Assembly: GCA_963665665.1 (NCBI GenBank) | Contig: OY762428.1 | Location: 2,208,001-2,272,000 of the forward strand | Source of the DNA: Candidatus Kapaibacterium sp. | Lineage (GTDB): Bacteria; Bacteroidota; Ignavibacteria; Kapaibacteriales; UBA2268 | Direction of reading: 5' to 3' | Length of the DNA: 64,000 bases | Part shown: positions 1 through 24,286 of the stretch, piece after piece | How the letters are laid out: every line of letters starts with the position of its first letter | How positions within the stretch are numbered: the first letter of the stretch is position 1 | Position numbers and translations under genes: made by a program | The notes under the pieces: generated by a model | Databases searched by the model: none | Told to the model about the DNA's origin: nothing | What the model saw: only the letters and a program-made list of their open reading frames with translations

Positions 1-990
1 GAATTACTTGCAAAATATTCCGGCAGAAAGCATTGTCTGGCATGCGCATCCGGTACAGACGCACTGCTTATGCCGCTTATGGCCTGGGAAATAGGCCCCG
101 GCGATGCCGTATTCACAAGTCCTTTCACATTTATTGCCACTGCGGAAGTTGTGGGCCTGGTTGGCGCTACACCCGTTTTCGCCGATATTGACGAAAAAAC
201 ATATAATATCGACCCGGTAAAACTGGAAGAAGCAATTATTAAAACAAAAGAAGAAGGCAAGCTAACCCCAAAAGCTATTATTCCCGTTGATTTGTTCGGA
301 CTACCGGCAGATTATGACGCTATTCTTGCAATAGCTGATAAATACGGGCTGGTCGTTCTTGAAGACGCGGCTCAGGGATTCGGGGGAATCTACAAAGGTA
401 AAAAGGCATGCAGCTTCGGACAGGTCTCGGCAACATCCTTCTTCCCGGCAAAGCCTCTCGGCTGCTACGGCGACGGCGGAGCTGTCTTTACAGATGACGA
501 CGATATGAAAGAAAAGCTCGAATCCATCAGGGTTCACGGCCAGGGCCCGGACAAATATACAAATATCCGCCTGGGGCTGAACGGCAGGATAGATTCCATT
601 CAGGCAGGAGTACTGCTTGCCAAAATGACAATATTCGACAAAGAAGGCGAACTCAGGAACAAGGTTGCTGCAAAATATACCGAAGCACTTAAAGGCAAAG
701 TTGTTACACCTACAGTTCCCGAAGGATATACTTCGGTTTGGGCGCAGTATTGCGTGCTGGCCGACAGTGCCGAACAGAGAAAAGAAATCCAGGCAAAGCT
801 TGGGGAAAACAATATTCCAAGCGCTATCTATTATCCCATACCGCTGCACATGCAGGAAGCTTTTGCCAGCCTGGGATATAATAAAGGAGATTTACCTGTA
901 TCGGAAGCAGCGGCAGAAAGAATATTCGCCTTGCCAATGCATCCCTACCTGACAGATGAAGAAATCAACCAGATAGCCGAAGTTATATAA
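1..990 (+). CDS. DegT/DnrJ/EryC1/StrS family PLP-dependent aminotransferase (5' truncated by window)
   Basis: Frame is open from base 1 (ELLAKYSGRKHCLACASGTDALLM...). Motifs EDAAQ and SFFPAKPLGCYGDGG (PLP lysine); C-terminal LPMHPYL. Confidence 0.95.
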   Translation, partial: ELLAKYSGRKHCLACASGTDALLMPLMAWEIGPGDAVFTSPFTFIATAEVVGLVGATPVFADIDEKTYNIDPVKLEEAIIKTKEEGKLTPKAIIPVDLFGLPADYDAILAIADKYGLVVLEDAAQGFGGIYKGKKACSFGQVSATSFFPAKPLGCYGDGGAVFTDDDDMKEKLESIRVHGQGPDKYTNIRLGLNGRIDSIQAGVLLAKMTIFDKEGELRNKVAAKYTEALKGKVVTPTVPEGYTSVWAQYCVLADSAEQRKEIQAKLGENNIPSAIYYPIPLHMQEAFASLGYNKGDLPVSEAAAERIFALPMHPYLTDEEINQIAEVI

Positions 991-1015
991 TCTTTCCAGC
1001 GTAATTCCTATATTT

Positions 1016-1056
1016 ATTCATCCGATGACTTTAAGTTATCGGATGAATTTTTTTTA
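1016..1056 (+). terminator. REP-like hairpin probably acting as intrinsic terminator
   Basis: attcatccgatgactt-t-aagttatcggatgaat followed by a T run, just after the aminotransferase stop; a related hairpin lies at 27036-27068. Confidence 0.7.
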
Positions 1057-1798
1057 CAGTACTGATAATTAATATGGCGAAGGACAATAATTTTAACTTT
1101 TTCCTGCCTGCATTGCCCCGGTGCGGTAATTGTCACAATATTAATAGATAGATCGGAAGATAACGCCTGCTACTTCCCCGATTAATCCAAATCATTGCCT
1201 GCAGTGAGAAAGTCTTTAAACCTCAGATTCTTAGGATTGAAAATAAGAAATATTGCTGCCTTGTTTTAAGTTAATGCTGCCTTGTTCGAAAGCATTGCCG
1301 CCTTGGTTGAAGTCATTGATGCCTTGGTCAGAGGCAAAACACCAATGTTTGACGCCATTGCTGCCTTGTTCAGAAGCAATGTACCAATGGTTGACGCTAT
1401 TGCAGCAATGTTTTGCTTTATTGCTGCCTTGTTCGAAGCTATTGTCGCCTTGTTCCAAATCAAAGCAAGAAAACCACCCCTGTATTCCCCTCCTACTTTA
1501 GGAGGGGATAAGAAGTTAAATAACATAGAATTAACTCCCCCTCCTTTCGAAGGATTTGGCAGAGTAAATGCAGCGATGTTTGAACATATTTCCCCTTTGG
1601 TCGGAATCATGGAACCCTTGTTCCAAAGTAATGCACCGAAGTTTTAACCTATTGCTGCCTTGGTCGAAGCTATTGTCGCCTTGTTCCAAATCAAAGCAAG
1701 AAAACCACCCCTGTATTCCCCTCCTACTTTAGGAGGGGATAAGAAGTTAAATAACATAGAATTAACTCCCCCTCCTTTCGAAGGAGGGGGGCGGGGGG

Positions 1799-3154
1799 CA
1801 TATGCGCTAACTTAGTGAAAATAAGTAATTCATACTACTTTGCCTTTTTCGATGTCCTTCTTTTAGGCAATTAGAAACATCATCCCAGTTGTTAATACAT
1901 TGATACAAAGTAATACCGGGACTGATGATTTTCAATAAAATATCTTTAACAAATACATTTTCACGCCATTGTGATGTACTCCTTTTATCATTCTCTTTTA
2001 TTAAACCTGTAGCCCCAGGGGGAAAAACGCTCACCTTCATCGATAATAGCCTGAGTAAGGAGAGCTGTGATCATCTTAGCATAAAGCCACGCTCGTGCAG
2101 AGTTTTTATCTTTTTTTGGTAAATGCCCCAAGCCAAATTGACTTTTTAGTTTTTTAAATGAAATTTCAACCTGCCATCTCATTCTATATAATTCTAAGAT
2201 ATTATTAGAAGATATATCATTAATCAAAGAAGTCACCAAAACAATATAATCATTAAGTCCTAAAGCTGTAGAACTGATTGTCTGTTGTTTTCTAGCAAAA
2301 TTCTTTTTTGCTTTCTTTCTGGATAACTCAGCTTGCTCCTTGCTTTTTTTGATAGCACATATACGTACAGGAATCTTTTTATTTTTTGAGGAGGAGGAGG
2401 AAATATAAAATATTTTGTCAAATATTTGATCTAACTTTAAACTTTTTAATTCTTTAATAATATCAACTTTATCATTTTTACTATTATATAGTGTAAAACC
2501 TTTATGCTTATATCTGACAACAAAATTTGCTTTCTTTCCGAGAATTTCTGAAATACCCTTATAACTGCAATATGCTCTGTCAATTAAAAAAAGATCAGAA
2601 GAGTTAATTTTGAAATTAGATATAGACTCACCGACTTTTGGGCTGGTAATAATAAATTCGTCACACTTGAGGTTGAACAGATTATGGCTGTAATGAAGTC
2701 TCCAGTCAGTACCTGTTGACCCCGGCTCAGTAACAACAGACGCATCGATACATCTTACATTGAAATCCGACAGCCATTCTGGGGAATCTAATGATATCCC
2801 CCTATTATGAATCAATCCTAATGCAATCCAGCGAAGCCAATCAGCAGACGTCCTCATTTTTTTTAATAACGCAACATCTGATATATCTATATTTCTTTCA
2901 TATTTAAGCTTAGTAGCAACCACCCTCATAGAATGCCCCGTTGCTACATGCATAAGTATTGCTCGAAGTTGCTCAGAAGGTGAATCAAATGCCCTGCGAC
3001 GTTGGAAAGCCTGGAGTTCTTTAGCCTTTAATTCCCATCCCAAAGGAAGTAAGGTTGTAACTACATCCCATTCTTCTATATGCTTGTTGTACTTTTCCAT
3101 TTACAAATATAAAAAAATTATATATAAAAATCAAACACTAAGTTAGCGCTTATG
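1799..3154 (-). mobile_element. Complete IS4-family insertion sequence (1356 bp)
   Basis: 19-bp terminal inverted repeats catatgcgctaacttagtg (1799-1817) and cactaagttagcgcttatg (3136-3154), one mismatch; 11-bp direct repeat ggggcgggggg at 1788-1798 and 3155-3165. Confidence 0.93.
1988..3100 (-). CDS. IS4-family DDE transposase
   Basis: CIDAS / LIDRAY / YRMRWQVEISFK (YREK signature); lies inside the terminal IRs. Confidence 0.93.
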   Translation of the reverse strand: MEKYNKHIEEWDVVTTLLPLGWELKAKELQAFQRRRAFDSPSEQLRAILMHVATGHSMRVVATKLKYERNIDISDVALLKKMRTSADWLRWIALGLIHNRGISLDSPEWLSDFNVRCIDASVVTEPGSTGTDWRLHYSHNLFNLKCDEFIITSPKVGESISNFKINSSDLFLIDRAYCSYKGISEILGKKANFVVRYKHKGFTLYNSKNDKVDIIKELKSLKLDQIFDKIFYISSSSSKNKKIPVRICAIKKSKEQAELSRKKAKKNFARKQQTISSTALGLNDYIVLVTSLINDISSNNILELYRMRWQVEISFKKLKSQFGLGHLPKKDKNSARAWLYAKMITALLTQAIIDEGERFSPWGYRFNKRE

Positions 3155-4158
3155 GGGGCGGGGGGAGGTAGGAAGTGTCGAAAGCAATGTACCAATGGTT
3201 GACGCTATTGCACTGATGTTTGATTTTATTGCCGCCTTGTTTGAAGTCATTGATACCTTGTTTAGAGGCAAAACACCAATGTTTGATTTTATTGATGCCT
3301 TGTTCTTCTTCAAAGCCCGCCCCTTCGGGGAGGGTTTGGGAGGGGTCAGGAGCAAAGCACCAATGTTTGATTCTATTGCTGCCTTGTTCGGAGTCATTGC
3401 AGCCTTGTTTAGAGGCAAAACACCAATGTTTGACGCCATTGCACCGATGTTTGATTTTATTGATGCCTTGGTCTTCTTCAAAGCCCTCTCCTTCGGGGAG
3501 GGTTTGGGAGGGGTCAGAGACAAAACACCGATGTTCGAAGCCATTACTGCCTTGTTCTTCTTCAAAGCCCGCCCCTTCGGGGAGGGTTTGGGAGGGGTCA
3601 GGAGCAAAGCACCAATGTTTGATTCTATTGCTGCCTTGTTCGGAGTCATTGCAGCCTTGTTTAGAGGCAAAACACCAATGTTTGACGCCATTGCACCGAT
3701 GTTTGATTTTATTGATGCCTTGGTCTTCTTCAAAGCCCTCTCCTTCGGGGAGGGTTTGGGAGGGGTCAGAGACAAAACACCGATGTTCGAAGCCATTACT
3801 GCCTTGTTCTTCTTCAAAGCCCGCCCCTTCGGGGAGGGTTTGGGAGGGGTCAGGAGCAAAGCACCAATGTTTGATTCTATTGCTGCCTTGTTCGGAGTCA
3901 TTGCAGCCTTGTTTAGAGGCAAAACACCGATGTTCGAAGCCATTACTGCCTTGGTCGAAGCCATTGACGCCTTGGTTGAAGATAATGTCGCCTTGTTAGG
4001 AATTATTGTTGCCTTGTTTGGAGTCATTGACGCCTTGGTTGAAGGCAATGCAGCAATGTTTTGCTTTATTGATACCTTGTTTGAAGCTATTGCTGCCTTG
4101 TTTGTAGGCATTGCTGCCTTGTTTTGGGGTAATGATTGCTTGTGTAGCGTTGGAATCC

Positions 4159-4685
4159 GGAATATTTAACTGATTGTATTATTAATTAAAATTGAATTAT
4201 TAAATATATGCTCAAAATCAGTAAATATTTAAGTATTTGTAGTAAATATATTTATTTAATTATTGAATAATCATATAGATTTATAATATTAATAATATAA
4301 CTAATCAAATAAATATTTCAAATAAGACATTAATTATTGTTTCTTATAATTTCTTCTTCTTCTTTTCTAAAATATATTAATTATTCAAGTATATATTTAA
4401 TTGTCCTAACAAATTAGATATACTGATTAATTAATAGGTTAATACTAATATTTAATAGTTTATAAATTTAAATTTGTAAATCATATCAATTATTTAATAA
4501 TATATATAATGTATTTAGTTATTTATATAAATAGTTTTGTTAGATGAACTATATCAAGGCTTTGATATATTATATAAATTATTATAAATACTATATATTT
4601 AATACAAATAGTACAATATTTAGTATTTTAGATTGAATATTTGATTATCAGTTCTATCTATAGACTATTCTCATCTCTATCTTTG
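4159..4685. other. Extremely AT-rich non-coding core between the two 21-nt arrays
   Basis: Hand count of 55 G+C in 420 nt (4201-4620), about 13% GC; no ORF; palindrome tatatcaa-ggct-ttgatata at 4550-4569. Confidence 0.85.
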
Positions 4686-5360
4686 GGATTTCAATGCCAA
4701 ACAAGCAATCAATGAGACAGAACAAGTCATCAATGAGGCGGAACAAGACATCAGTAAGGCGGAACAAGTGAGCAATGAGGTGGAACAAGACATCAATAAA
4801 GCAGAACAAGCGTACAATGAGTCGGAACAAGACATCATTGAAGCCAAACATGCAAGTAATGAAGCCAAACAAGACATCAATGAAGCCGGACAAGTGAGCA
4901 ATGAGGCGGAACAAGCATGCAATGAAGCGAAACAAGCAAGCAATGAAGTGGAACAAGACATCAGTAAGGCGGAACAAGCAAGCAATGAGGCGGAACAAGT
5001 GAGTAATGAAGCGGAACAAGTGAGCAGTAAGTCAAACCAAGCAAGCAATGAGACAGAACAAGCATGCAATGAAGCAGAACAAGGCAACAGTAAGGCGGAA
5101 CAAGACATCAGTAAGGCGAAACAAGACATCAATAAAGCAGAACAAGACATCAATGAAGCAGAACAAGACATCAGTAATGCGGAACAAGCAAGCAATGAAG
5201 CCGGACAAGTGTGCAGTAAGGCAAACCAAGTGAGCAATGAAGCGGAACAAGTCATCAATAAGGCTAAACAAGCAAGCAATGAAGCCAAATTTCACTACAT
5301 TAAGGCCAAAGAATGCTTCAATACCTCCGGACAAGGCAGTATAAAGCCTCGCCAACAAAG
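4686..5360 (+). repeat. Degenerate 21-nt tandem array (right arm), about 31 units; one frame reads as an (S/I)NEAEQ(A/D/V) heptad repeat
   Basis: Units like caatgaggcggaacaagacat at 4710, 4731, 4752 ... 5277, 5298, 5319; frame open 4645-5367 without an ATG start. Confidence 0.9.
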
Positions 5361-5512
5361 CGATTAGCCCAAACATCAGGGTTTTGATTAAAAACAGCAT
5401 TGAATTAAGGAAATTATCCGGTTCATTGAAACCAGAGGATGTGGAATTAAGGCCGGCGGTTGGTTCATTGGGGTGGAAGAACGGGGGGTAAGGGCCGGAG
5501 AAGGAGGTATTA

Positions 5513-5800
5513 TGTTGCCTTTCTGACGGAGCGAAGCGACCGAAGAATCCATCTTTTCTGGCAAATAATTTTAAAGAATGGATACTTCGCTCCGCTCAGA
5601 ATGACCTTCCAGCCTTATAATCGTCAAATTCAATAGCCAGGTGCTTTAGCTCGTGGATAAGGGGGGATAAGAAAAAGAATCCACCCCAGCCTGTCCCGAC
5701 TTGTCGGGAACTCGCTGCGCTCGCCAACCCTCAACGAGGGGAATTTTAAGAATCCACCCCCGCCCTTCCCCGATGCGTCGGGGCCGGCGGTGGACAGATG
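5513..5800. repeat. Mosaic of REP/MITE-like palindromic elements
   Basis: Inverted pair ttctgacggagcgaagc...acttcgctccgctcagaa; two aagaatccacccc starts; 16-bp palindromes at 5694-5709 and 5768-5783. Confidence 0.65.
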
Positions 5801-5815
5801 TAACCGAAAAATTAC

Positions 5816-7984
5816 TCACTCCTTCACAAACATGCCTGAAATAATATCATTGCCAGTTTCGATTCTGATGTAGTAAATGCCTGCCGGAAAATCACGGAGA
5901 GGAATGCTTGTATTGTGTTCCATTACAGCGGAAAAAGTGGTGTTCATGTAAACTTTTGCGCCGAGCTGGTTATATACGCTGATATTTGCCGGGGCTATGG
6001 TTGATGTTCTAAATTTCAGGTCAATAAAATCAGTGGCGGGGCAGGGAGATATATTGATTTCCCCGGATACGATTGTTTTAATTTCGTTTTCAACTGAAAG
6101 GGATGTTTTTTCGCTGCGGTAAAGCCCTGCGTCTTTTTCGGCAAAATAGATATATCCTTCCGGGCTGACGGACAGAAAATTGAATTGGCTTGGCCCATGT
6201 ATCAGGCCTGTTGAAATATCGCTCCAATCATAAAAATCATCAGTACTTTTCAGGCGTTGAAATTTATCTGCCCGGCCATGAAAACCTATCAAGCGGTTAA
6301 GGGAATCTACTCCTAAGAACATTCTCGGATAATTCAGAGAATCGCGGAACCAAGACCTGCCGTTATCTGAAGTACGAATATTCCAATGACTATAACCATT
6401 GGAGTACTTATCAAATAACAACATTCTGATTTCTTGTTCAGTGATACCATTCAAAAAATAATTCATTTTGGCAAATGCCCATGTTTCCCCGTCATCTGTT
6501 GACCTGTATATCTGCCCGTTGTCACTTCCCCTGAAAATATGCCCTTCTGAGTTCATAGCAAATGAATAGGTATCACCTTCAATAGATCTTTTTTGCCATG
6601 TTATTCCTTTATCAGTTGAATAAATCAATTTATTCCCGAAGTCATGCGCCATATAAATTTGTCCCCTGCTGTTCTCGAAAAAACTATTTGGACTGGCATT
6701 TGTTGAAAATTCCGATCTTGTGCGATATTCCCAGCTTTCCCCTCCGTCAGTGGATCGAGCTGTTTTATAACTGCCGCTATTTGAACTGACAATAATATAA
6801 TCATCTCGGGTAATATAAATAACCGACCATGTTGAATTTTCAACAAGCTTAAGATCTCTCCATGTAATTCCATCATCTGAAGATTTTAAAACTCTTCCAT
6901 TTGCGGTAACAAATATGCTCCCTTCGCTGTCATAGCTTATTCCTTTTACATCAGTAGATACGATTCCTTTATTAGATTCTGTCCAGGTTCTTCCTCCGTT
7001 TCTTGAATAAAAAAAACCCTGCCAATTACCTGCATAAAGTTCTCCATTACCTAATGAAATCATATTTTCAAATGGAGTGTTTTCGCTTTCAAGTGTCATT
7101 ATCTGCCATGTTTTTCCGCTGTCAACCGATTTGAAAACCGAAAAATAATCATCATCAATGCCATTAGCAAAAAGTTCATTTTGGGAGTTACGGCACAAGT
7201 ATTTTGAAAAACCTTCAATATTTGTAGCATTCCAGGTTTCACCTTTATCTTCCGAATAGTAAACTCCGTAGGTAGTGGCAATAACAATTTTTTCATTTGT
7301 TATAAACTCAGCTTTAAAAACACAATAAGGTGTTTCAATGTATTGCCATGATCGCCCGGAATCAGGACTGATAAATATAAAACCTTCATCAATATAATCC
7401 ACATAGCCTATTATCACCATTTCGTCATACTGATTTATATAATAATCCCTTTTATAAAATGCTTTTGAAACTGATAATTTATAGCTGTTTATTTTAACGA
7501 TTTCCTTCAGATCCGGAACCGAATAACTTAAAATTGAATCACTTTTAAAGATAACTCCAAACACATTATTATTATTATCCATTGCATATATTGGCATTAA
7601 ATTATCAGGAGTAAAAGAATCAATTCCATAGTCTTCGTCAAAGAAATTTACCTGCCAGGTATCTCCATTGTTAGTTGATCTATAGTATACTAAATCACCC
7701 TTATGCGAATCATCCCCTCCGTAACGGATAAACCTTATCAATGATCCATCAGGATAAGACATTACTTTTCCATAATAATAAAAATCTTTCAGCCATTTCC
7801 AGCTTCTTCCAAAATCATCGGAACGATAGTGTCCGTTATCAGTATCAATAAATATCCTCCCGTTCAAACTAAACAAATCTCTTATGGTTCCCCCTTCCGG
7901 CCCCCAGAGGTATTTCCAGAAATCACCGGCAAGAAGGTTGAAGGGAACAATAATAAATAAGGCAATCAGTAACAGCTTTTTCAT
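5816..7984 (-). CDS. Secreted BNR/Asp-box beta-propeller protein with T9SS C-terminal sorting domain
   Basis: Signal peptide MKKLLLIALF; many SxDxGxTW repeats; C-terminal ISPCPA...VYNQLG...GIYYIRI...FVKE. Confidence 0.88.
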   Translation of the reverse strand: MKKLLLIALFIIVPFNLLAGDFWKYLWGPEGGTIRDLFSLNGRIFIDTDNGHYRSDDFGRSWKWLKDFYYYGKVMSYPDGSLIRFIRYGGDDSHKGDLVYYRSTNNGDTWQVNFFDEDYGIDSFTPDNLMPIYAMDNNNNVFGVIFKSDSILSYSVPDLKEIVKINSYKLSVSKAFYKRDYYINQYDEMVIIGYVDYIDEGFIFISPDSGRSWQYIETPYCVFKAEFITNEKIVIATTYGVYYSEDKGETWNATNIEGFSKYLCRNSQNELFANGIDDDYFSVFKSVDSGKTWQIMTLESENTPFENMISLGNGELYAGNWQGFFYSRNGGRTWTESNKGIVSTDVKGISYDSEGSIFVTANGRVLKSSDDGITWRDLKLVENSTWSVIYITRDDYIIVSSNSGSYKTARSTDGGESWEYRTRSEFSTNASPNSFFENSRGQIYMAHDFGNKLIYSTDKGITWQKRSIEGDTYSFAMNSEGHIFRGSDNGQIYRSTDDGETWAFAKMNYFLNGITEQEIRMLLFDKYSNGYSHWNIRTSDNGRSWFRDSLNYPRMFLGVDSLNRLIGFHGRADKFQRLKSTDDFYDWSDISTGLIHGPSQFNFLSVSPEGYIYFAEKDAGLYRSEKTSLSVENEIKTIVSGEINISPCPATDFIDLKFRTSTIAPANISVYNQLGAKVYMNTTFSAVMEHNTSIPLRDFPAGIYYIRIETGNDIISGMFVKE

Positions 7985-8046: not shown

Positions 8047-8152
8047 GTCTAAACCGCGTTTAATTGCGTCTAAATGTAACTTCAATAATTTCAATATATA
8101 ATTAGAAACATATGTCTGAATTTGCGTCTAAACCGCGTTTAATTGCGTCTAA
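8047..8152. repeat. 27-bp direct repeat built of phased GTCTAA motifs overlapping a stop codon
   Basis: gtctaaaccgcgtttaattgcgtctaa at 8047-8073 and 8126-8152. Confidence 0.8.
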
Positions 8153-9803
8153 GTTTCCATAAAGAATTGTTCCCGGAACCAATGTACTTAATCGTTTCGT
8201 CCTTTGTATGCATCTCATAAAGTATGTTTTTAATCTTACTCCGTTTTTGATTTTCAGTTAGAATATCAGGTAGTTTTTCAAACAGTAATTCTTCAAAATC
8301 TTTTCGTGAAGCTTCAATAAAACTCTCTAAATAATTTAAGATCAATTGTTTATAATAATCTTTATCGAGCCCCTTCTGCTTTATATAATTAACTTCCTGC
8401 CCCGTTGTTAATGCTACTTTCTTAGATATGTAAAAATTAGGTTTCCTGCCCTCGATTAATTTTTTTGATTTTAGCGCTTTAATTTCAAAATCAATTAATT
8501 TCCGGCCTTTTTGAACTTTATCAAGCATTATTATTTCAAATAAGGATAGATCATGATTCTCCGATAAAGTTCTTGCATAATCAAAGTCTAATACTTTTCC
8601 GAGAATTTCAACCGAAACCCTTGATTCTTCAATTCTATAATCGGGAAGTGGAAACATTTTTTCACGTTGCAGATTGAACATTCTTTTAATCCCGCTGCCA
8701 ATGGTATCGATCATTTTCAGGTTTACCATAGCATTAGCAAGAAAAGGATTTCTATAATACTCAGTCGGAGCATCAGAATTAATTACATTTTCAATTGTTC
8801 CGGGAATAAAACTACCAAGATTAGTGAAAAGCAATCTGCCATCTTCAAACTCAACTACATTGATCTTTCCGCATAATTGATAATCCTGGTGGGCGATGCA
8901 ATTGTTTAAAGATTCCCTGATTATATAAGGGTCATATTGATCCGTTTCATCCGGAAATATTGTACCGTCTTTAATATATCTGTATTTTAAATTTCTGATC
9001 TTCGAAAAAACAGCGTCAGATGCCAGTAAAAAAGGGCAGGAAAAATGTTCGTAATCTTTCTCAATATTTTTAGAATCCTTTAAAATCCAACTGATTTTAG
9101 CAACGGCAGGCGATATAAAATGTTCTGATTCCGGTTTCCCGAGCAACAGAATGGCTGCTCTTGTAATTTTAATGCTCTTTGTTAGTTTTGCTTTGTTTAA
9201 AAATGTAGAATCATCCCAGTTGGAAATTTCTGCTTCAAGATGCTTGTGCTTGTCAGTATAGTTTTGCCGGGCTTTCAGAATAGCAACAGGGTCAAGATCA
9301 TCTATAGTGGCATCCGGGCATATTTCCGCGCTCCAGTCAAACATAATAACCTGCGATCTTATCTGTTCCAATTTGCTGATATTTAATGCTACCAGCGATT
9401 CATGCTCACGGGCATAATAATGGCCTTTGAAAGCAATGGGAAGGCCTTTCGGAGCAGGTGGTATTTGAAAAGCTACGATTCTTTTACCTTTATACTGAAC
9501 TTCGTGAACATCAATAAAAGAATGATTATTTGTTGTCTGTTGTGAAATATCATGCTTTATAGTCTGAAGAGTTCCTTGCCTGTAATTTGTTCCCCTGACT
9601 TCCTTCGTTTTGTCCTCTATACCGAATAGTATCCAGGCGCAATCCTTGTTTTTAAGATTTGCTTCATTGCTCAGCGCAGAGAAGTATTTTCCCAGATCAT
9701 CATTTGAAAACCTGTTTTCTGCTTTTTTAAATTCAACAACTTCATTCTCGTCCGGCAGGGCTAATAGATCTTCTATTATGGATAAAAGGTTCATTTCTTT
9801 CAT
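8139..9803 (-). CDS. AlbA_2/Schlafen-like domain + HATPase_c_4 (RecG C-like) + winged-HTH protein
   Basis: N-terminal ENEVVEFK...SALSNEA; RESLNNCIAHQDY; YRNPFLANAMVNLKMIDTIGSGI; C-terminal wHTH-like region. Confidence 0.88.
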   Translation of the reverse strand: MKEMNLLSIIEDLLALPDENEVVEFKKAENRFSNDDLGKYFSALSNEANLKNKDCAWILFGIEDKTKEVRGTNYRQGTLQTIKHDISQQTTNNHSFIDVHEVQYKGKRIVAFQIPPAPKGLPIAFKGHYYAREHESLVALNISKLEQIRSQVIMFDWSAEICPDATIDDLDPVAILKARQNYTDKHKHLEAEISNWDDSTFLNKAKLTKSIKITRAAILLLGKPESEHFISPAVAKISWILKDSKNIEKDYEHFSCPFLLASDAVFSKIRNLKYRYIKDGTIFPDETDQYDPYIIRESLNNCIAHQDYQLCGKINVVEFEDGRLLFTNLGSFIPGTIENVINSDAPTEYYRNPFLANAMVNLKMIDTIGSGIKRMFNLQREKMFPLPDYRIEESRVSVEILGKVLDFDYARTLSENHDLSLFEIIMLDKVQKGRKLIDFEIKALKSKKLIEGRKPNFYISKKVALTTGQEVNYIKQKGLDKDYYKQLILNYLESFIEASRKDFEELLFEKLPDILTENQKRSKIKNILYEMHTKDETIKYIGSGNNSLWKLRRN

Positions 9804-14508: not shown

Positions 14509-16629
14509 ATGAGCGATATTTATAAAAACCCTGAAGCACAAAGAAATATCAGTATTTTCAAGGACAGCCTGGCTTCTTTGAAAAAAGGCAGAGGAGCTAT
14601 TATTTGTATCAGCGGTGAAACCGGTTTTGGAAAAACCCACCTGCTGAATACCTATTCTATCGAATGCCAGGCAAGGGGCGAACAGCTTCAGTCTGCGATG
14701 GTAGAAACATCTGCTCCTATTGGTAATTTTAATGTAGGAACGATTCAGCCTTTGCAGCCTTTTACCAGGGCAATCGAATATCTTATGGCAGATGAAGCCT
14801 CGGCAAAGAAAAACCTGGCACGCAACCTGGTTATGACCGGCCTGTCAGTTATTCCTGTTGCCGGAGACCTTTTCTGGGCCATAAAAGAAGCAGGTAAGGA
14901 CTGGAGAGAATTCAAAAAAGAAAAATCATCCGAATCAACAAAAAAAGTAAGTTCTGCTACTGCCGATATATATGATACATTGATGGCAATATCAGACAAA
15001 GTGCCCCTGATATTGCTTATGGACGATATGCATTGGGCTGATGCCCAATCGGTTGAATTAATGAATATGCTCGCCGATAACATTAGCAAAATACCCGTTG
15101 TTATTGCTTTTACCTGCCGTATGGATGTTCTGCATGCCCAGGGCACACCACTATTGTCATTTATTGAAAGAAGAGTGAATAAAGATAACAACATATACCG
15201 GGTTGAACTTAATCCGTTTGACAAAAAACAAATAAGTTCTACATGCGGTTTCTTTCTGCCAAATTATAAACCCAACCATGATTTTGAGGAGTGGATTTAC
15301 GAGCATTCCTACGGAGTACCGGGTGTTGTTATGGAATATCTTCACTATTTTATGGAAAATCCTCCTTTTGATGATTCCGGGCAACTACAATCAAATTTCG
15401 GGCAGGGAGATTTTCTTCCTGCAACGGTGCAGTCAACATTTTCTCAGTTACTTGGCAAACTTAATGACGAAGAAAGAAATATTCTGGCCACTTGTGCAGC
15501 GGAAGGAAGAGAGTTTTCTGCAATTATTATTTCCGAACTTATTAATTCTGATATTTTATCTACTATAAAAAAACTAAGGTCTCTCCAGAATAAAACCGGG
15601 ATTATTAAAAGTAAAGGAGCCAGGCACAAATACGGTGTAAAAACGACGGTATATAAGTTTACTCAGGCTTTTTACCATACTTTTTTCGAACGAAACCTGG
15701 AATATGAGGAACATGTTGCACTACACGGACAGATTGCCGCTACTCTCAGGAAAAGATATGATGATGCGGAAAATGAAGCTGTCAGGGAGCAGATAGCACC
15801 ATACCTTGCAGCACACAGCGCGGAATCAGGAGATGAAGATATGGCCAAAGACATGCTTATGGAAACAGCGCGGCATGCGAAGAAATACGGGAGCGCTGAA
15901 ATTATTAAAGATGCTTATGATAATTATGTCAGTTTCGGCAATACTGTTCTGGCAGCTCCTGATGATACAAACAGCGAAGCCGAGCCGGATATAGATTTTG
16001 ATGCCGTAACATTCAGGGAAATGGTGAAAACGGCCCATGCTGAATCTGATAGCGAGTATAAAGCAAGCGATGAAAATTCCAAAACTGAATCCTCTGCTAA
16101 TTCCAATGGTGGTATTAGTGAATTTGCCACAATGGAATTTAATTCAATCAGAAAAGCAGTAATTAAAAAATTTCTGGAAAGGGATTTTATCTCGGCAACC
16201 GACCTTGCTCAATCATATATGGATGATGAAGAGGTAACACTTGACGACGCTGAAAAGGCCCAGCTTTTAGCTATAATAGCCCGCTGTAAAATTGAAACAA
16301 ATGATTTTGACTCTGCCGAAAATTATTGCCGGGAAGCTCAGAAAGCGGCTGATAACAGCAACAACGAACTTGCAGAATGTATTGCAATAAATACATTTGC
16401 TTTGCTCAGGTTCTCTCAGGAACGTTATAATGATGCAATTATTTACCTGCAGGATATTGCCAAAAAAGCATTGAAAATGCCTGTTGAACTAAGGCTGCTG
16501 ACAATTAGTAATATATACCGCATCATGGATAAAAAGACTCCGGAAAAAGCAAGGCAATTCCGTGAATCTGCTGCTAAATTAAGCTCCGAGCTAAAGTATC
16601 GTGATTTCCAGGAAGAGGCATTGAACTAA
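14509..16629 (+). CDS. STAND-type (AAA_16) ATPase with C-terminal TPR-like helices
   Basis: Walker A GETGFGKT, Walker B LLMDDMHWAD, GVP (GxP) motif, YKFTQ...LAAH, TPR-like C-terminus. Confidence 0.85.
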   Translation: MSDIYKNPEAQRNISIFKDSLASLKKGRGAIICISGETGFGKTHLLNTYSIECQARGEQLQSAMVETSAPIGNFNVGTIQPLQPFTRAIEYLMADEASAKKNLARNLVMTGLSVIPVAGDLFWAIKEAGKDWREFKKEKSSESTKKVSSATADIYDTLMAISDKVPLILLMDDMHWADAQSVELMNMLADNISKIPVVIAFTCRMDVLHAQGTPLLSFIERRVNKDNNIYRVELNPFDKKQISSTCGFFLPNYKPNHDFEEWIYEHSYGVPGVVMEYLHYFMENPPFDDSGQLQSNFGQGDFLPATVQSTFSQLLGKLNDEERNILATCAAEGREFSAIIISELINSDILSTIKKLRSLQNKTGIIKSKGARHKYGVKTTVYKFTQAFYHTFFERNLEYEEHVALHGQIAATLRKRYDDAENEAVREQIAPYLAAHSAESGDEDMAKDMLMETARHAKKYGSAEIIKDAYDNYVSFGNTVLAAPDDTNSEAEPDIDFDAVTFREMVKTAHAESDSEYKASDENSKTESSANSNGGISEFATMEFNSIRKAVIKKFLERDFISATDLAQSYMDDEEVTLDDAEKAQLLAIIARCKIETNDFDSAENYCREAQKAADNSNNELAECIAINTFALLRFSQERYNDAIIYLQDIAKKALKMPVELRLLTISNIYRIMDKKTPEKARQFRESAAKLSSELKYRDFQEEALN

Positions 16630-23005: not shown

Positions 23006-24286
23006 TCACATCCCGAGCAGATTCTGCACGTATAGTTCTTCAATACCTATCTCGTTTTTCAGGAAGGCCTGTATTTCCGCTTTCTCGTGCAGTCGGATTA
23101 TTGTTGAAAATCCTTCGGCGTCCCTTGTAACGAACAGGATATTTTCCAGTCCTGCGAATTTTACTATCTCGGGGTTGTGCGTACTGGTTATTATCTGCTT
23201 GCGCGTGCATGCGTCCTTCATCATATCTATAATTTTTGATATAAGGTGCGGGTGTATCCTTCTTTCCGGCTCTTCGAATATTGCGAAGGGTTTTTTCTCG
23301 AAATAAAGCGCGACTATAAGGGCTATAATAAATATGGTGCCCTCGGACATCAGCGACGCAGGGAGGTCCTTTTGGGACTGGTATTTTTCCTTAATCACCA
23401 GCTGCAGATAGCGGTCCATGTGTTTTTCCACCCTGATCGAATCGATAAAGGGCAGCACGTCGGATACGAAATTGAAGAACATCCTTTTGCGCTCCTCGTC
23501 TTCGAGTATTCGCCGGATTACTATTGCCAGGTTTTCGCCGTTCTTTTCCAGGTCGGCTTTTGCCGCTACCGAAGCCATGTACTTGGGATACTTGGGTTCG
23601 AAATCGTATATGGTTATATCGTGAATGTATCGCGCCACTTTTTCGAAGGGGAACATGTAGAATATCGGCGATTCCAGAATCAGCACACGTGACTGCTTTT
23701 CCTGCAGGAATTTCAGCATATCTTTTATCAGCGGGAACAGCGAGTTGTGCGAAACCGGGAATTCCCCGTCCGGGCGGAAATCAATCGAAGGTTTGCCACT
23801 GTCATTTTTTATCTCTAAGCTACCGGTGCAAATATAATTTTCCTCATTCGGCAGGGTTTCGATATTATCGGAGCGGTGAAAATCGAAAACAGCCTCCATC
23901 CTGTCTTTTTTAATAGCGTATTCCTTGTCCTTTGCCGGAAAATTCAGCGAGAAGGAGTAGTTAAACTTTTTCAGCCGCAGGTTTATAGGCCCGGCTTCGG
24001 TGTCGCGGCTGACTCCATAGGCCTTCAGTGGCTCTATTTCAATACACAGGCTGAGGTCGTCGTTTTTCTTCCTCAGGTTTATATTCCGCACGTAGTCCGA
24101 GCCGCCCTGCATCGATATAGCGTTTTCCAGCCCGTGGTAAACAATATCCCTTACAAACCTGAAAACGGACAGCAGGTTGGATTTCCCGGCGCCGTTAGGC
24201 CCAATCAGCACATTGAAATTGTTCAGGCCTATACTGATATCTCTGAAACTCTTGAAGTTCTTAATTTTTAATTTTTTCAGCAGCAT
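23006..24286 (-). CDS. AAA_21/AAA_15 ABC-type ATPase (OLD/AbiEii-associated class)
   Basis: IKNFKSF, Walker A GPNGAGKSN, signature MSEGT, Walker B FEEPE, H-loop STHNP. Confidence 0.9.
   Translation of the reverse strand: MLLKKLKIKNFKSFRDISIGLNNFNVLIGPNGAGKSNLLSVFRFVRDIVYHGLENAISMQGGSDYVRNINLRKKNDDLSLCIEIEPLKAYGVSRDTEAGPINLRLKKFNYSFSLNFPAKDKEYAIKKDRMEAVFDFHRSDNIETLPNEENYICTGSLEIKNDSGKPSIDFRPDGEFPVSHNSLFPLIKDMLKFLQEKQSRVLILESPIFYMFPFEKVARYIHDITIYDFEPKYPKYMASVAAKADLEKNGENLAIVIRRILEDEERKRMFFNFVSDVLPFIDSIRVEKHMDRYLQLVIKEKYQSQKDLPASLMSEGTIFIIALIVALYFEKKPFAIFEEPERRIHPHLISKIIDMMKDACTRKQIITSTHNPEIVKFAGLENILFVTRDAEGFSTIIRLHEKAEIQAFLKNEIGIEELYVQNLLGM

Follow-up and report, generated by a model that had tools for sequence, protein, structure and literature searches.

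Long inverted arms of tandem short repeats are known from foldback (FB) transposons, which are eukaryotic elements with an optional middle loop and a strand that folds back on itself; the arms of an FB element are near-identical to each other and some FB copies carry a transposase. Described cases are the FB type transposons of Drosophila, Galileo and Tetris (PMC4079207, PMC3573991; available in excerpt). In Bacteroidota, the excerpts available of the description of the BrickBuilt element of Porphyromonas gingivalis present a spacer-less 23-nt minisatellite between a leader and a tail, which occurs in ~19 intergenic, species-restricted copies with variable unit numbers, has bidirectional promoter activity and receives doubtful open reading frames (ORFs) from annotation pipelines; they also mention MITEPgRS/464 (PgRS) of the same species, with 41-nt repeats (PMC4596501). 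Here we analyze a stretch of 64,000 nt (the window) from Candidatus Kapaibacterium sp. (contig OY762428.1, positions 2,208,001 to 2,272,000), part of a single 5,458,198-bp contig with 38.6% guanine plus cytosine (GC), in which two inverted arrays of 21-nt units flank an AT-rich core. From left to right, 21-nt units make up a left arm, which is followed by the AT-rich center where this is present, then by a right arm in inverted orientation, by a tail whose units are degenerate and by a flank composed of hairpin modules; one 21-nt register is common to arms, modules, core and tail. It is most likely a non-coding, foldback-like element with minisatellite arms. Our working hypothesis, to which we assign a probability of about 0.5, is that it represents a lineage-restricted non-coding dispersed repeat in which arrays grow and shrink in register and the 21-bp phasing is selected at the level of the DNA. 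The parts of the copy in the window are:

1252 to 1798, minus strand: distal left (B) arm, 21-nt units and two copies of a ~130-nt two-hairpin GC-rich module (sequence, Tandem Repeats Finder (TRF))
1788 to 1798 and 3155 to 3165: 11-bp target duplication of the insertion sequence (IS) (boundary analysis)
1799 to 3154, minus strand: secondary IS of 1356 bp with 19-bp terminal inverted repeats and an 11-bp target duplication
1988 to 3100, minus strand: DDE_Tnp_1 transposase ORF (Pfam, E = 1.5e-14)
3155 to 4132, minus strand: proximal left (B) arm, 21-nt units, 42-nt GC hairpin modules and a higher-order repeat (TRF)
4133 to 4158, minus strand: B-side leader, a degenerate first unit of the left arm, in 16 copies
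4159 to 4685, no strand assigned: AT-rich core, 13-16% GC, ~25 degenerate AT-rich 21-nt units with dyad symmetry
4686 to 4711, plus strand: A-side leader, a degenerate first unit of the right arm, in 16 copies, 553 bp from the B leader
4712 to 5289, plus strand: right (A) arm, ~28 units of type GAACAAGnnnnCAATGAGGCG (TRF)
5290 to 5460, plus strand: tail, ~8 degenerate 21-nt units, kept in 49 copies and free of insertions and deletions (indels)
5461 to 5790, plus strand: right flank, small hairpin modules, indel-rich, with ~50-150 genomic copies (BLAST copy-number profile, indel list)

A first-pass annotation, made from the letters of the window alone, had reported 21-nt repeat arrays on both sides of an AT-rich middle without unique spacers, and both observations were made again: 21-nt arrays called by TRF span 3879-4124 with 11.7 copies and 4700-5282 with 27.8 copies, the GC content across 4201-4600 is 12.5-14%, and unit follows unit directly in the sequence and in TRF. 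It had also given a 22/26 match between the two leaders, which stands on recount, as the reverse complement of 4133-4158 differs from 4686-4711 at 4 of 26 positions. The arms, likewise taken to be related, have the skeleton.A.CAAG....CA.T.A.... in common, and in a core-less copy of the element (see below) the strand running across both arms folds into one long hairpin with a minimum free energy of -298 kcal/mol vs -245 +/- 8 kcal/mol for 20 shuffles (z = -6.4), supporting that they are.

Searching the genome for the leader with up to six mismatches returned 33 matches, 32 of which form 16 pairs exactly 553 bp apart while the remaining one is unrelated; the leader was found nowhere else in the genome, including IS ends. 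The arm-core-arm layout thus recurs in 16 copies with an invariant leader-to-leader distance, and the earlier suggestion of a symmetric element of a kind without a name is supported. A 24-nt tail motif following the right arm has 50 matches in the genome, of which 49 lie in real copies of the element. In 33 of these 49 copies there is no core, so that the inverted arms abut directly, and their right arms are built of sister unit types. Elements measure ~1.5-4 kb and have 10-70 units per arm. To compare arms across copies, we defined arm pairs as B and A motifs within 4 kb of each other (n = 50). Between or inside the arms of these pairs we found only the 527-bp core or the unrelated 1356-bp IS; a master copy with a gene of its own, or a transposase between the arms, was not found among them. 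No exact outer ends emerged, the left end being variable and the right flank breaking up into modules (copy-number profile, alignments). Regarding strand, 31 of the 49 copies are co-oriented with replication, which is a weak bias.

Evidence for a constraint on the DNA itself comes from the register. The distance from the B to the A motif equals 16 modulo 21 in 47 of the 50 arm pairs, at in-phase distances of 37, 58, 100, 142, 583, 625, 667 and 1045; two more pairs come into phase after subtraction of the 1367 nt of IS plus duplication, giving a total of 49/50, and a single pair is out of phase. Relative to the tail, the A motif lies at 1 and the B motif at 6 modulo 21 in nearly every copy, with or without core. 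In the window, the A motif occupies a single register throughout the right arm (25/25 matches), as does the B motif CCTTG[GT]T in the proximal left arm (21/21), where its position of 6 modulo 21 relative to the tail matches the other copies. In the distal left arm, the B motif falls in register 20 in 10/10 matches, which is the proximal register once the IS and its target duplication (1367 nt, or 2 modulo 21) are taken out. The two-hairpin module, with 67 copies in the genome, is also in phase in 19 of the 20 copies that have a B motif on both sides.

In parts of the element, length is kept although the sequence varies. The 579-bp centers of the 16 copies, leaders included, align without gaps at 79-95% identity, with 232 of 579 columns variable and none gapped, and the first 215 nt after the right arm have no gap column among 49 copies at 85% mean identity. 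In a longer alignment of tail and flank, the first gap appears at column 173, and the ~300 nt beyond contain dozens of small and large indels. Core and tail therefore lack indels, unlike the adjoining flank of the same copies, and because that flank is full of them, indels evidently arise and persist where nothing constrains the sequence. A register that runs throughout the element, together with indel-free parts beside indel-rich DNA, would hardly be expected unless the length or phase of the DNA is constrained; because the core is full of stop codons and yet shares period, register and absence of indels, this constraint cannot be a reading frame. The first-pass annotation had offered three readings, namely a phased protein-loading DNA scaffold of origin- or centromere-like type, a divergently transcribed pair of repeat RNAs and a divergent pair of coiled-coil genes. 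Because the register spans arms, core and tail and because core and tail are indel-free, the phased DNA scaffold fits best of the three; its origin- or centromere-like part, which implies a single locus, is not supported, given 49 dispersed copies and no rep or par gene in the ORFs scanned beside the copy in the window.

The AT-rich core is not a distinct kind of sequence and has a 21-nt period itself. At lags of 21, 42, 63 and 84, the autocorrelation amounts to 0.507, 0.481, 0.494 and 0.464, compared to 0.373 +/- 0.021 for shuffles, and stacking the core in 21-nt rows displays ~25 AT-rich units that are inverted between the two halves and mutually only ~50% alike. The ends of the core are ~145-bp inverted repeats of 70% identity, and stop codons are abundant in all of its frames. 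Because these ends are degenerate array units and the interior has the same period, we rejected the idea that the core is a recent, clean insertion of a MITE (miniature inverted-repeat transposable element). In invertible promoters of the Bacteroides type, a segment between inverted repeats occurs in both orientations; all 16 cores have one orientation relative to the A and B leaders, and an invertible promoter segment was rejected as well. A 24-nt block of the core (window 4534-4557) is found at 30 places in the genome, of which 16 are the cores and the other 14 are further AT-rich intergenic stretches. The latter (e.g. L023:3440-3700, L024, L025 and L026) are 70-82% similar to parts of the core, and six of them form a near-identical group adjoining a copy of an IS3-family element. 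At L023, the IS3 (HTH_Tnp_1 and rve ORFs) lies inside a core-like AT-rich stretch, beside a 42-nt array (L023:5397-5652). As a parent of the core, IS3 was rejected, being merely inserted in a core-like AT-rich stretch at another locus.

The left arm is not the one array that it had been taken for. It is cut by the 1356-bp IS at 1799-3154 and contains GC-rich hairpin modules as well as a higher-order repeat (3264-3944, proximal arm) with a period of 252 bp, or 12 units, in 2.7 copies with 97% matches (TRF). This 12-unit duplication documents recent in-register growth of the array. The IS is present in seven full-length copies in the genome (the other six at chromosome positions 136468, 371187, 997128, 1346668, 2158378 and 2483115), five of which are identical and each of which has an 11-bp duplication; in Logan contigs, its depth is ~5 times that of single-copy sequence. 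Reading of the flanks places five of the seven insertions clearly in G-rich hairpin modules of the repeat family, and the flank of a sixth is similar. Because of the identical copies, the target duplications and the five insertions in the family's hairpin modules, the IS looks active and target-selective. Its insertion is later than the array it splits. The periodicity of the core, the arm register with or without core, the absence of indels in core and tail and the splitting of the left arm by an IS are new compared to the first-pass annotation.

The period itself is a property of this genome beyond the present family. We counted 104 regions of period 21 (58,210 bp), none of periods 19, 20, 22 or 23, two of period 18 and four of period 24; 21-nt arrays make up ~1% of the 5.46-Mb chromosome, and three array families that are unrelated in sequence have a period of 21 or 42. 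A second 21-nt family with ~50% GC, unrelated in sequence, is found at chromosome positions 235700-236300 and 2870600-2871250 and at ~30 further loci; it has two unit types in tandem in one register with a short junction between them, and conserved flanks. A 42-nt array beside another AT-rich stretch has the same period.

Outside this genome, matches were few. Core DNA gave only short AT-rich matches in 40 genomes of the same taxonomic family, and a query of right arm, tail and flank matched in 120 such genomes only with 5521-5662, in 15 of them. This part of the window is a hairpin-forming module of ~90-140 nt with roughly 90-150 copies in the genome. The exact tail pattern had no hit in two large collections of genome contigs and metagenome contigs, from which the genome itself was possibly left out, and a looser skeleton pattern returned 30 loci, mostly heptanucleotide repeats or repeats within large genes. 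Intergenic 21-nt arrays with units resembling A and B were nevertheless found in two metagenome-assembled genomes (MAGs), one of Flavobacterium sp. BFFFF2 (L045, L048, L054, L055 and L056) and one of Chitinophagaceae (L029 and L057); in the latter, two unit types are mixed in higher-order repeats. The look-alike arrays of both have conserved flanks of their own. In two copies of the Flavobacterium MAG, the same upstream sequence enters the array in different frames, which argues against coding there. We found no description of 21-nt twin arrays of Bacteroidota in the literature, BrickBuilt being the nearest.

We suggest that the arms would lengthen and shorten by in-register unequal exchange or slippage, and that the 21-bp phasing, which corresponds to two helical turns, would be maintained by selection on the DNA itself. 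Selection on DNA rather than on a protein is favored because the AT-rich core is untranslatable. Such selection would most likely be due to each unit being a putative binding site, so that an oligomerizing protein could assemble on one face of the helix; candidates for the binder are a host nucleoid factor or an enzyme that mobilizes or recombines the element, and the AT-rich dyad center may be the point at which assembly or melting starts.

Several observations weigh against this hypothesis. Phase coherence across the hairpin modules could stem from one ancestral composite rather than from selection, and gene conversion among the copies may account for some of the lack of indels. We saw neither a binding protein nor a transcript nor a transposition event, and mobility is deduced from dispersal alone, as no terminal inverted repeats or target duplications have been defined for the element as a whole. 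Other points relate to its non-coding nature. Reading outward from the core, the A frame (EQxSNEA type) is open in 16/16 copies, has helix-friendly heptads in every subfamily, gives a weak match to the Pfam family Alanine_zipper (PF11839; 26.9 bits, cut-off 23.1) and is slightly more variable at third codon positions (unit entropy 0.91 vs 0.72 and 0.71). Reading inward, a frame is open in 49/49 copies and has one fixed codon that is TTG in 30 and ATG in 6 (36 of the 49 copies), and inward frames have codon-usage scores of 0.235 and 0.245 compared to 0.29 +/- 0.07 for real genes, scores that are based on ~7 codons per unit type.

We therefore considered four rival explanations, which we rank in the order neutral minisatellite, outward heptad genes, functional RNA hairpin and inward heptad genes. 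The first of these holds that the arrays are a neutral or selfish minisatellite whose register and lack of indels arise as side effects when the ~50 copies undergo in-register unequal crossing-over and gene conversion, the phasing serving no function for host or element; we regard it as the most serious competitor, albeit an improbable one. Ongoing in-register exchange is indeed evident from the 12-unit duplication at 97%, many variable positions are two-state, as would be expected from few haplotypes mixed by conversion, and the family was not found in the 120 genomes of the same taxonomic family. The elements also tend to face the 3' ends of genes, since 32 of the 49 right-hand genes point towards the element in a crude ORF call that is contaminated by array ORFs. 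However, the same copies that have no indels in core and tail carry many small indels just past the tail, the core units are only ~50% alike and yet keep a coherent register over at least 84 nt and over the whole element, and a period of 21 or 42 is common to three sequence-unrelated array families in this genome. A stronger version of our working hypothesis, which we advance as speculation and consider somewhat less probable than a neutral minisatellite, is that the elements are phase-locked nucleoprotein scaffolds, on which a protein polymerizing in 21-bp steps would nucleate at the AT-rich dyad and spread along both arms, making them ~50 organizing or silencing centers.

With respect to coding, both strands of the arms have several open frames and the unit consensus is open in 4 to 6 of six frames; a 21-nt unit is calculated to have ~4.3 of six frames open by chance, so that the open frames in the arms are at about chance level. 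As a test for stop avoidance, column shuffling offers no valid null here because it mixes distinct unit types. The proposal that divergent heptad-repeat (coiled-coil-like) genes run outward from the core with non-canonical initiation, yielding an acidic A product of EQxSNEA type and a B product of QGxN type or basic NKAAxxS type, is unlikely in our view. Its A frame, besides being open throughout, matching Alanine_zipper weakly and having a slight excess of third-position variability, is entered by the A leader in the same frame as the B frame is by the B leader, two of the four leader differences are at third positions, and the homologous frame is the only open one in four of the five Flavobacterium look-alike arrays. 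However, this frame is closed by a stop 35-41 nt upstream of the leader, and no ATG, GTG or TTG precedes the array in 13 of the 16 copies, a canonical start being present in three; the conserved ATG of the leader lies in another frame that soon runs into TGA. On the B side, the longest frame varies from copy to copy. Most core-less copies have an in-frame stop (CAG TAG) within the conserved tail, past which the DNA is still conserved, and they leave no room for a promoter between the arms; in the cores, the Bacteroidota -7 box TAnnTTTG is not conserved (see below).

Substitution patterns and homology searches lend coding no clear support. Counted on the consensus, variable tail sites are distributed by position modulo 3 as 9, 10 and 8, and unit entropy by codon position is nearly flat (A units: 0.72, 0.71 and 0.91; B units: 0.74, 0.75 and 0.63). 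A protein search with the outward A frame yielded 4830 candidates, none at E <= 0.001, and an exact look-up of six array ORFs in a protein collection gave no match. Frames differ between paralogues in the Flavobacterium MAG, and coding offers no explanation for a periodic, indel-free and stop-rich core. The suggested divergent pair of coiled-coil genes thus finds little support, considering the missing start in 13/16 copies, the inconsistent B frames, the stops in the tail and the lack of homologues.

That each arm instead encodes a hydrophobic heptad protein (IAALVEV or HLVDLTE type) which is read inward, with its start in the outer flank and its stop at the junction or core edge, is the least likely of the four rivals, and we give it very little weight. 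It does have the best codon-usage scores of the six frames (0.235 and 0.245 vs 0.29) and the open frame and fixed start position described above; of the 13 copies without TTG or ATG at this position, 12 begin at other codons (ATG or GTG) and one inside the array. At the core-less junction, moreover, one frame ends at a stop 8 nt downstream of an ATG of the next. The codon score, however, is drawn from the ~7 codons of each unit type, every heptad of one subfamily would contain a proline (FIPRLFD), variability peaks at first codon positions, and stops interrupt this frame in 3 of 11 units of the Flavobacterium look-alike L054. In a phmmer search of 1.84 billion proteins with one inward ORF, 810 matches were obtained at E <= 0.001; among the 150 matches listed, only the repeat part was matched and none was to the non-repeat N-terminus, and the six inspected were unrelated low-complexity proteins.

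If the product were RNA, it could be a long imperfect hairpin across the arms or a set of outward repeat RNAs, acting as regulators or processing substrates, which we judge to be quite unlikely. The strand across both arms folds far better than its shuffles (z = -6.4), and segments of BrickBuilt show bidirectional promoter activity in the excerpts of its description (PMC4596501). Against this, the window from 900 to 6000 has no match in Rfam (best E-value 0.94), and the covariation term of RNAalifold over the 16 cores is slightly positive and so gives no compensatory support for a conserved RNA structure. The -7 box (TAnnTTTG) is conserved at no position of the cores, occurring in at most 6 of 16 copies at any one, and scans for sigma-70 promoters and terminators were not usefully above shuffles. 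Finally, a hairpin tolerates small bulges, leaving the strict absence of indels in a loop-like core unexplained.

The neighborhood of the element consists of genes of other kinds. Its neighbors in the window are (Pfam):

DegT aminotransferase
BNR protein of the type IX secretion system (T9SS)
Schlafen/AlbA_2 ATPase
TypA

A T9SS sorting domain (Por_Secre_tail) was detected in one ORF near the arrays, which places the organism in the Bacteroidota. The window holds 55 ORFs of at least 150 aa, and in the 27 non-array ORFs among them that were scanned for cas, rep and par there was none of these; the statement of the first-pass annotation that the window lacks such genes is thus confirmed for these 27 of 55 ORFs. 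The sole gene within this copy of the element is that of the later IS. A CRISPR array was rejected, the units being contiguous and no cas domain being present in the ORFs scanned, and so was an iteron origin or partition centromere, as 49 copies lie on one 5.46-Mb contig and the neighbors of the copy in the window are of other kinds. A terminator-like hairpin with a 15-bp stem followed by a T run is located at 1011-1050, 3' of the DegT aminotransferase gene, and has ~40-47 copies in the genome. Further along the window are three ORFs which may be defence-related genes amid housekeeping surroundings:

8139 to 9803, minus strand: Schlafen AlbA_2 and HATPase_c_4 domains
14509 to 16629, plus strand: AAA_16 domain
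23006 to 24286, minus strand: AAA_21/AAA_15 domains (AbiEii-like ATPase)

The Logan contigs of four sequencing runs all end within the arrays and none spans the element, and so they neither back the assembly nor cast doubt on it.

Long tandem arrays are rarely kept by bacterial genomes. If a protein reads the arrays, Bacteroidota would have a chromosomal element of a new type; if none does, the arrays would offer a clean natural case in which to study the persistence and movement of bacterial minisatellites and foldback structures. Should the speculative scaffold model be true, the element would be a functional bacterial 'satellite', and the three unrelated families with a common period, together with the arrays in the Flavobacterium and Chitinophagaceae MAGs, would suggest that a system reading 21-bp arrays exists across Bacteroidota. 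On the practical side, spurious heptad-repeat ORFs are to be expected from gene callers on such arrays, and breaks within them from short-read assemblies.

How does the element compare with known systems? In iteron origins and in type II partition centromeres (parC of plasmid R1, for example), ~11-22-bp helix-phased protein-binding repeats flank a central AT-rich or promoter region; these systems occur once per replicon, beside rep or par genes, with a handful of repeats. The present element is like them in having repeat arrays on either side of a central AT-rich region and unlike them in having ~49 chromosomal copies and 10-70 units per arm, with no rep or par in the ORFs scanned nearby. BOX elements of Streptococcus pneumoniae and bacterial interspersed mosaic elements (BIMEs) of enterobacteria are mosaic, modular dispersed repeats in which the number of an internal module varies. 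The element is likewise a mosaic of modules with a variable number of internal ones, whereas BOX elements and BIMEs are much shorter and have neither long phase-locked arrays nor inverted twin arms. Heptad coiled-coil proteins such as Alanine_zipper (PF11839) come to mind because 21 nt equal seven codons and the A frame scores 26.9 bits vs a cut-off of 23.1; unlike genes for such proteins, the element lacks an outward A start in most copies, has no homologues found and no clear coding-type substitution pattern, and includes an untranslatable core of the same period.

BrickBuilt remains the closest known element, and the comparison is with the excerpts of its description (PMC4596501). Both are dispersed, intergenic, spacer-less minisatellites of Bacteroidota with a conserved leader and tail, and, as for a MITE with a minisatellite, 49 of the present copies share the tail and 16 the leaders. 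They differ in that BrickBuilt has one direct array and the present element two inverted arms; that BrickBuilt units are of 23 nt with 0-6% indels within elements, compared to a strict 21-nt register with an indel-free core and tail here; and that BrickBuilt has IS5-like 12-bp terminal inverted repeats, none of which were identified on the present element (PMC4596501). The present element is also larger (~1.5-4 kb) and has more copies (~50 vs ~19), and it has a periodic AT-rich center, none being described for BrickBuilt in those excerpts (PMC4596501). With FB transposons, it has in common the inverted arms of tandem repeats, the optional middle (16 copies with core, 33 without) and the fold-back structure (z = -6.4); unlike theirs, its arms match each other at ~13 of 21 positions per unit, and no transposase lies between the arms of the 50 pairs. 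In sum, the element has no recognized terminal repeats or parent IS and is set apart from both BrickBuilt and FB transposons by its twin inverted arms, its strict phase lock and its periodic AT-rich center.

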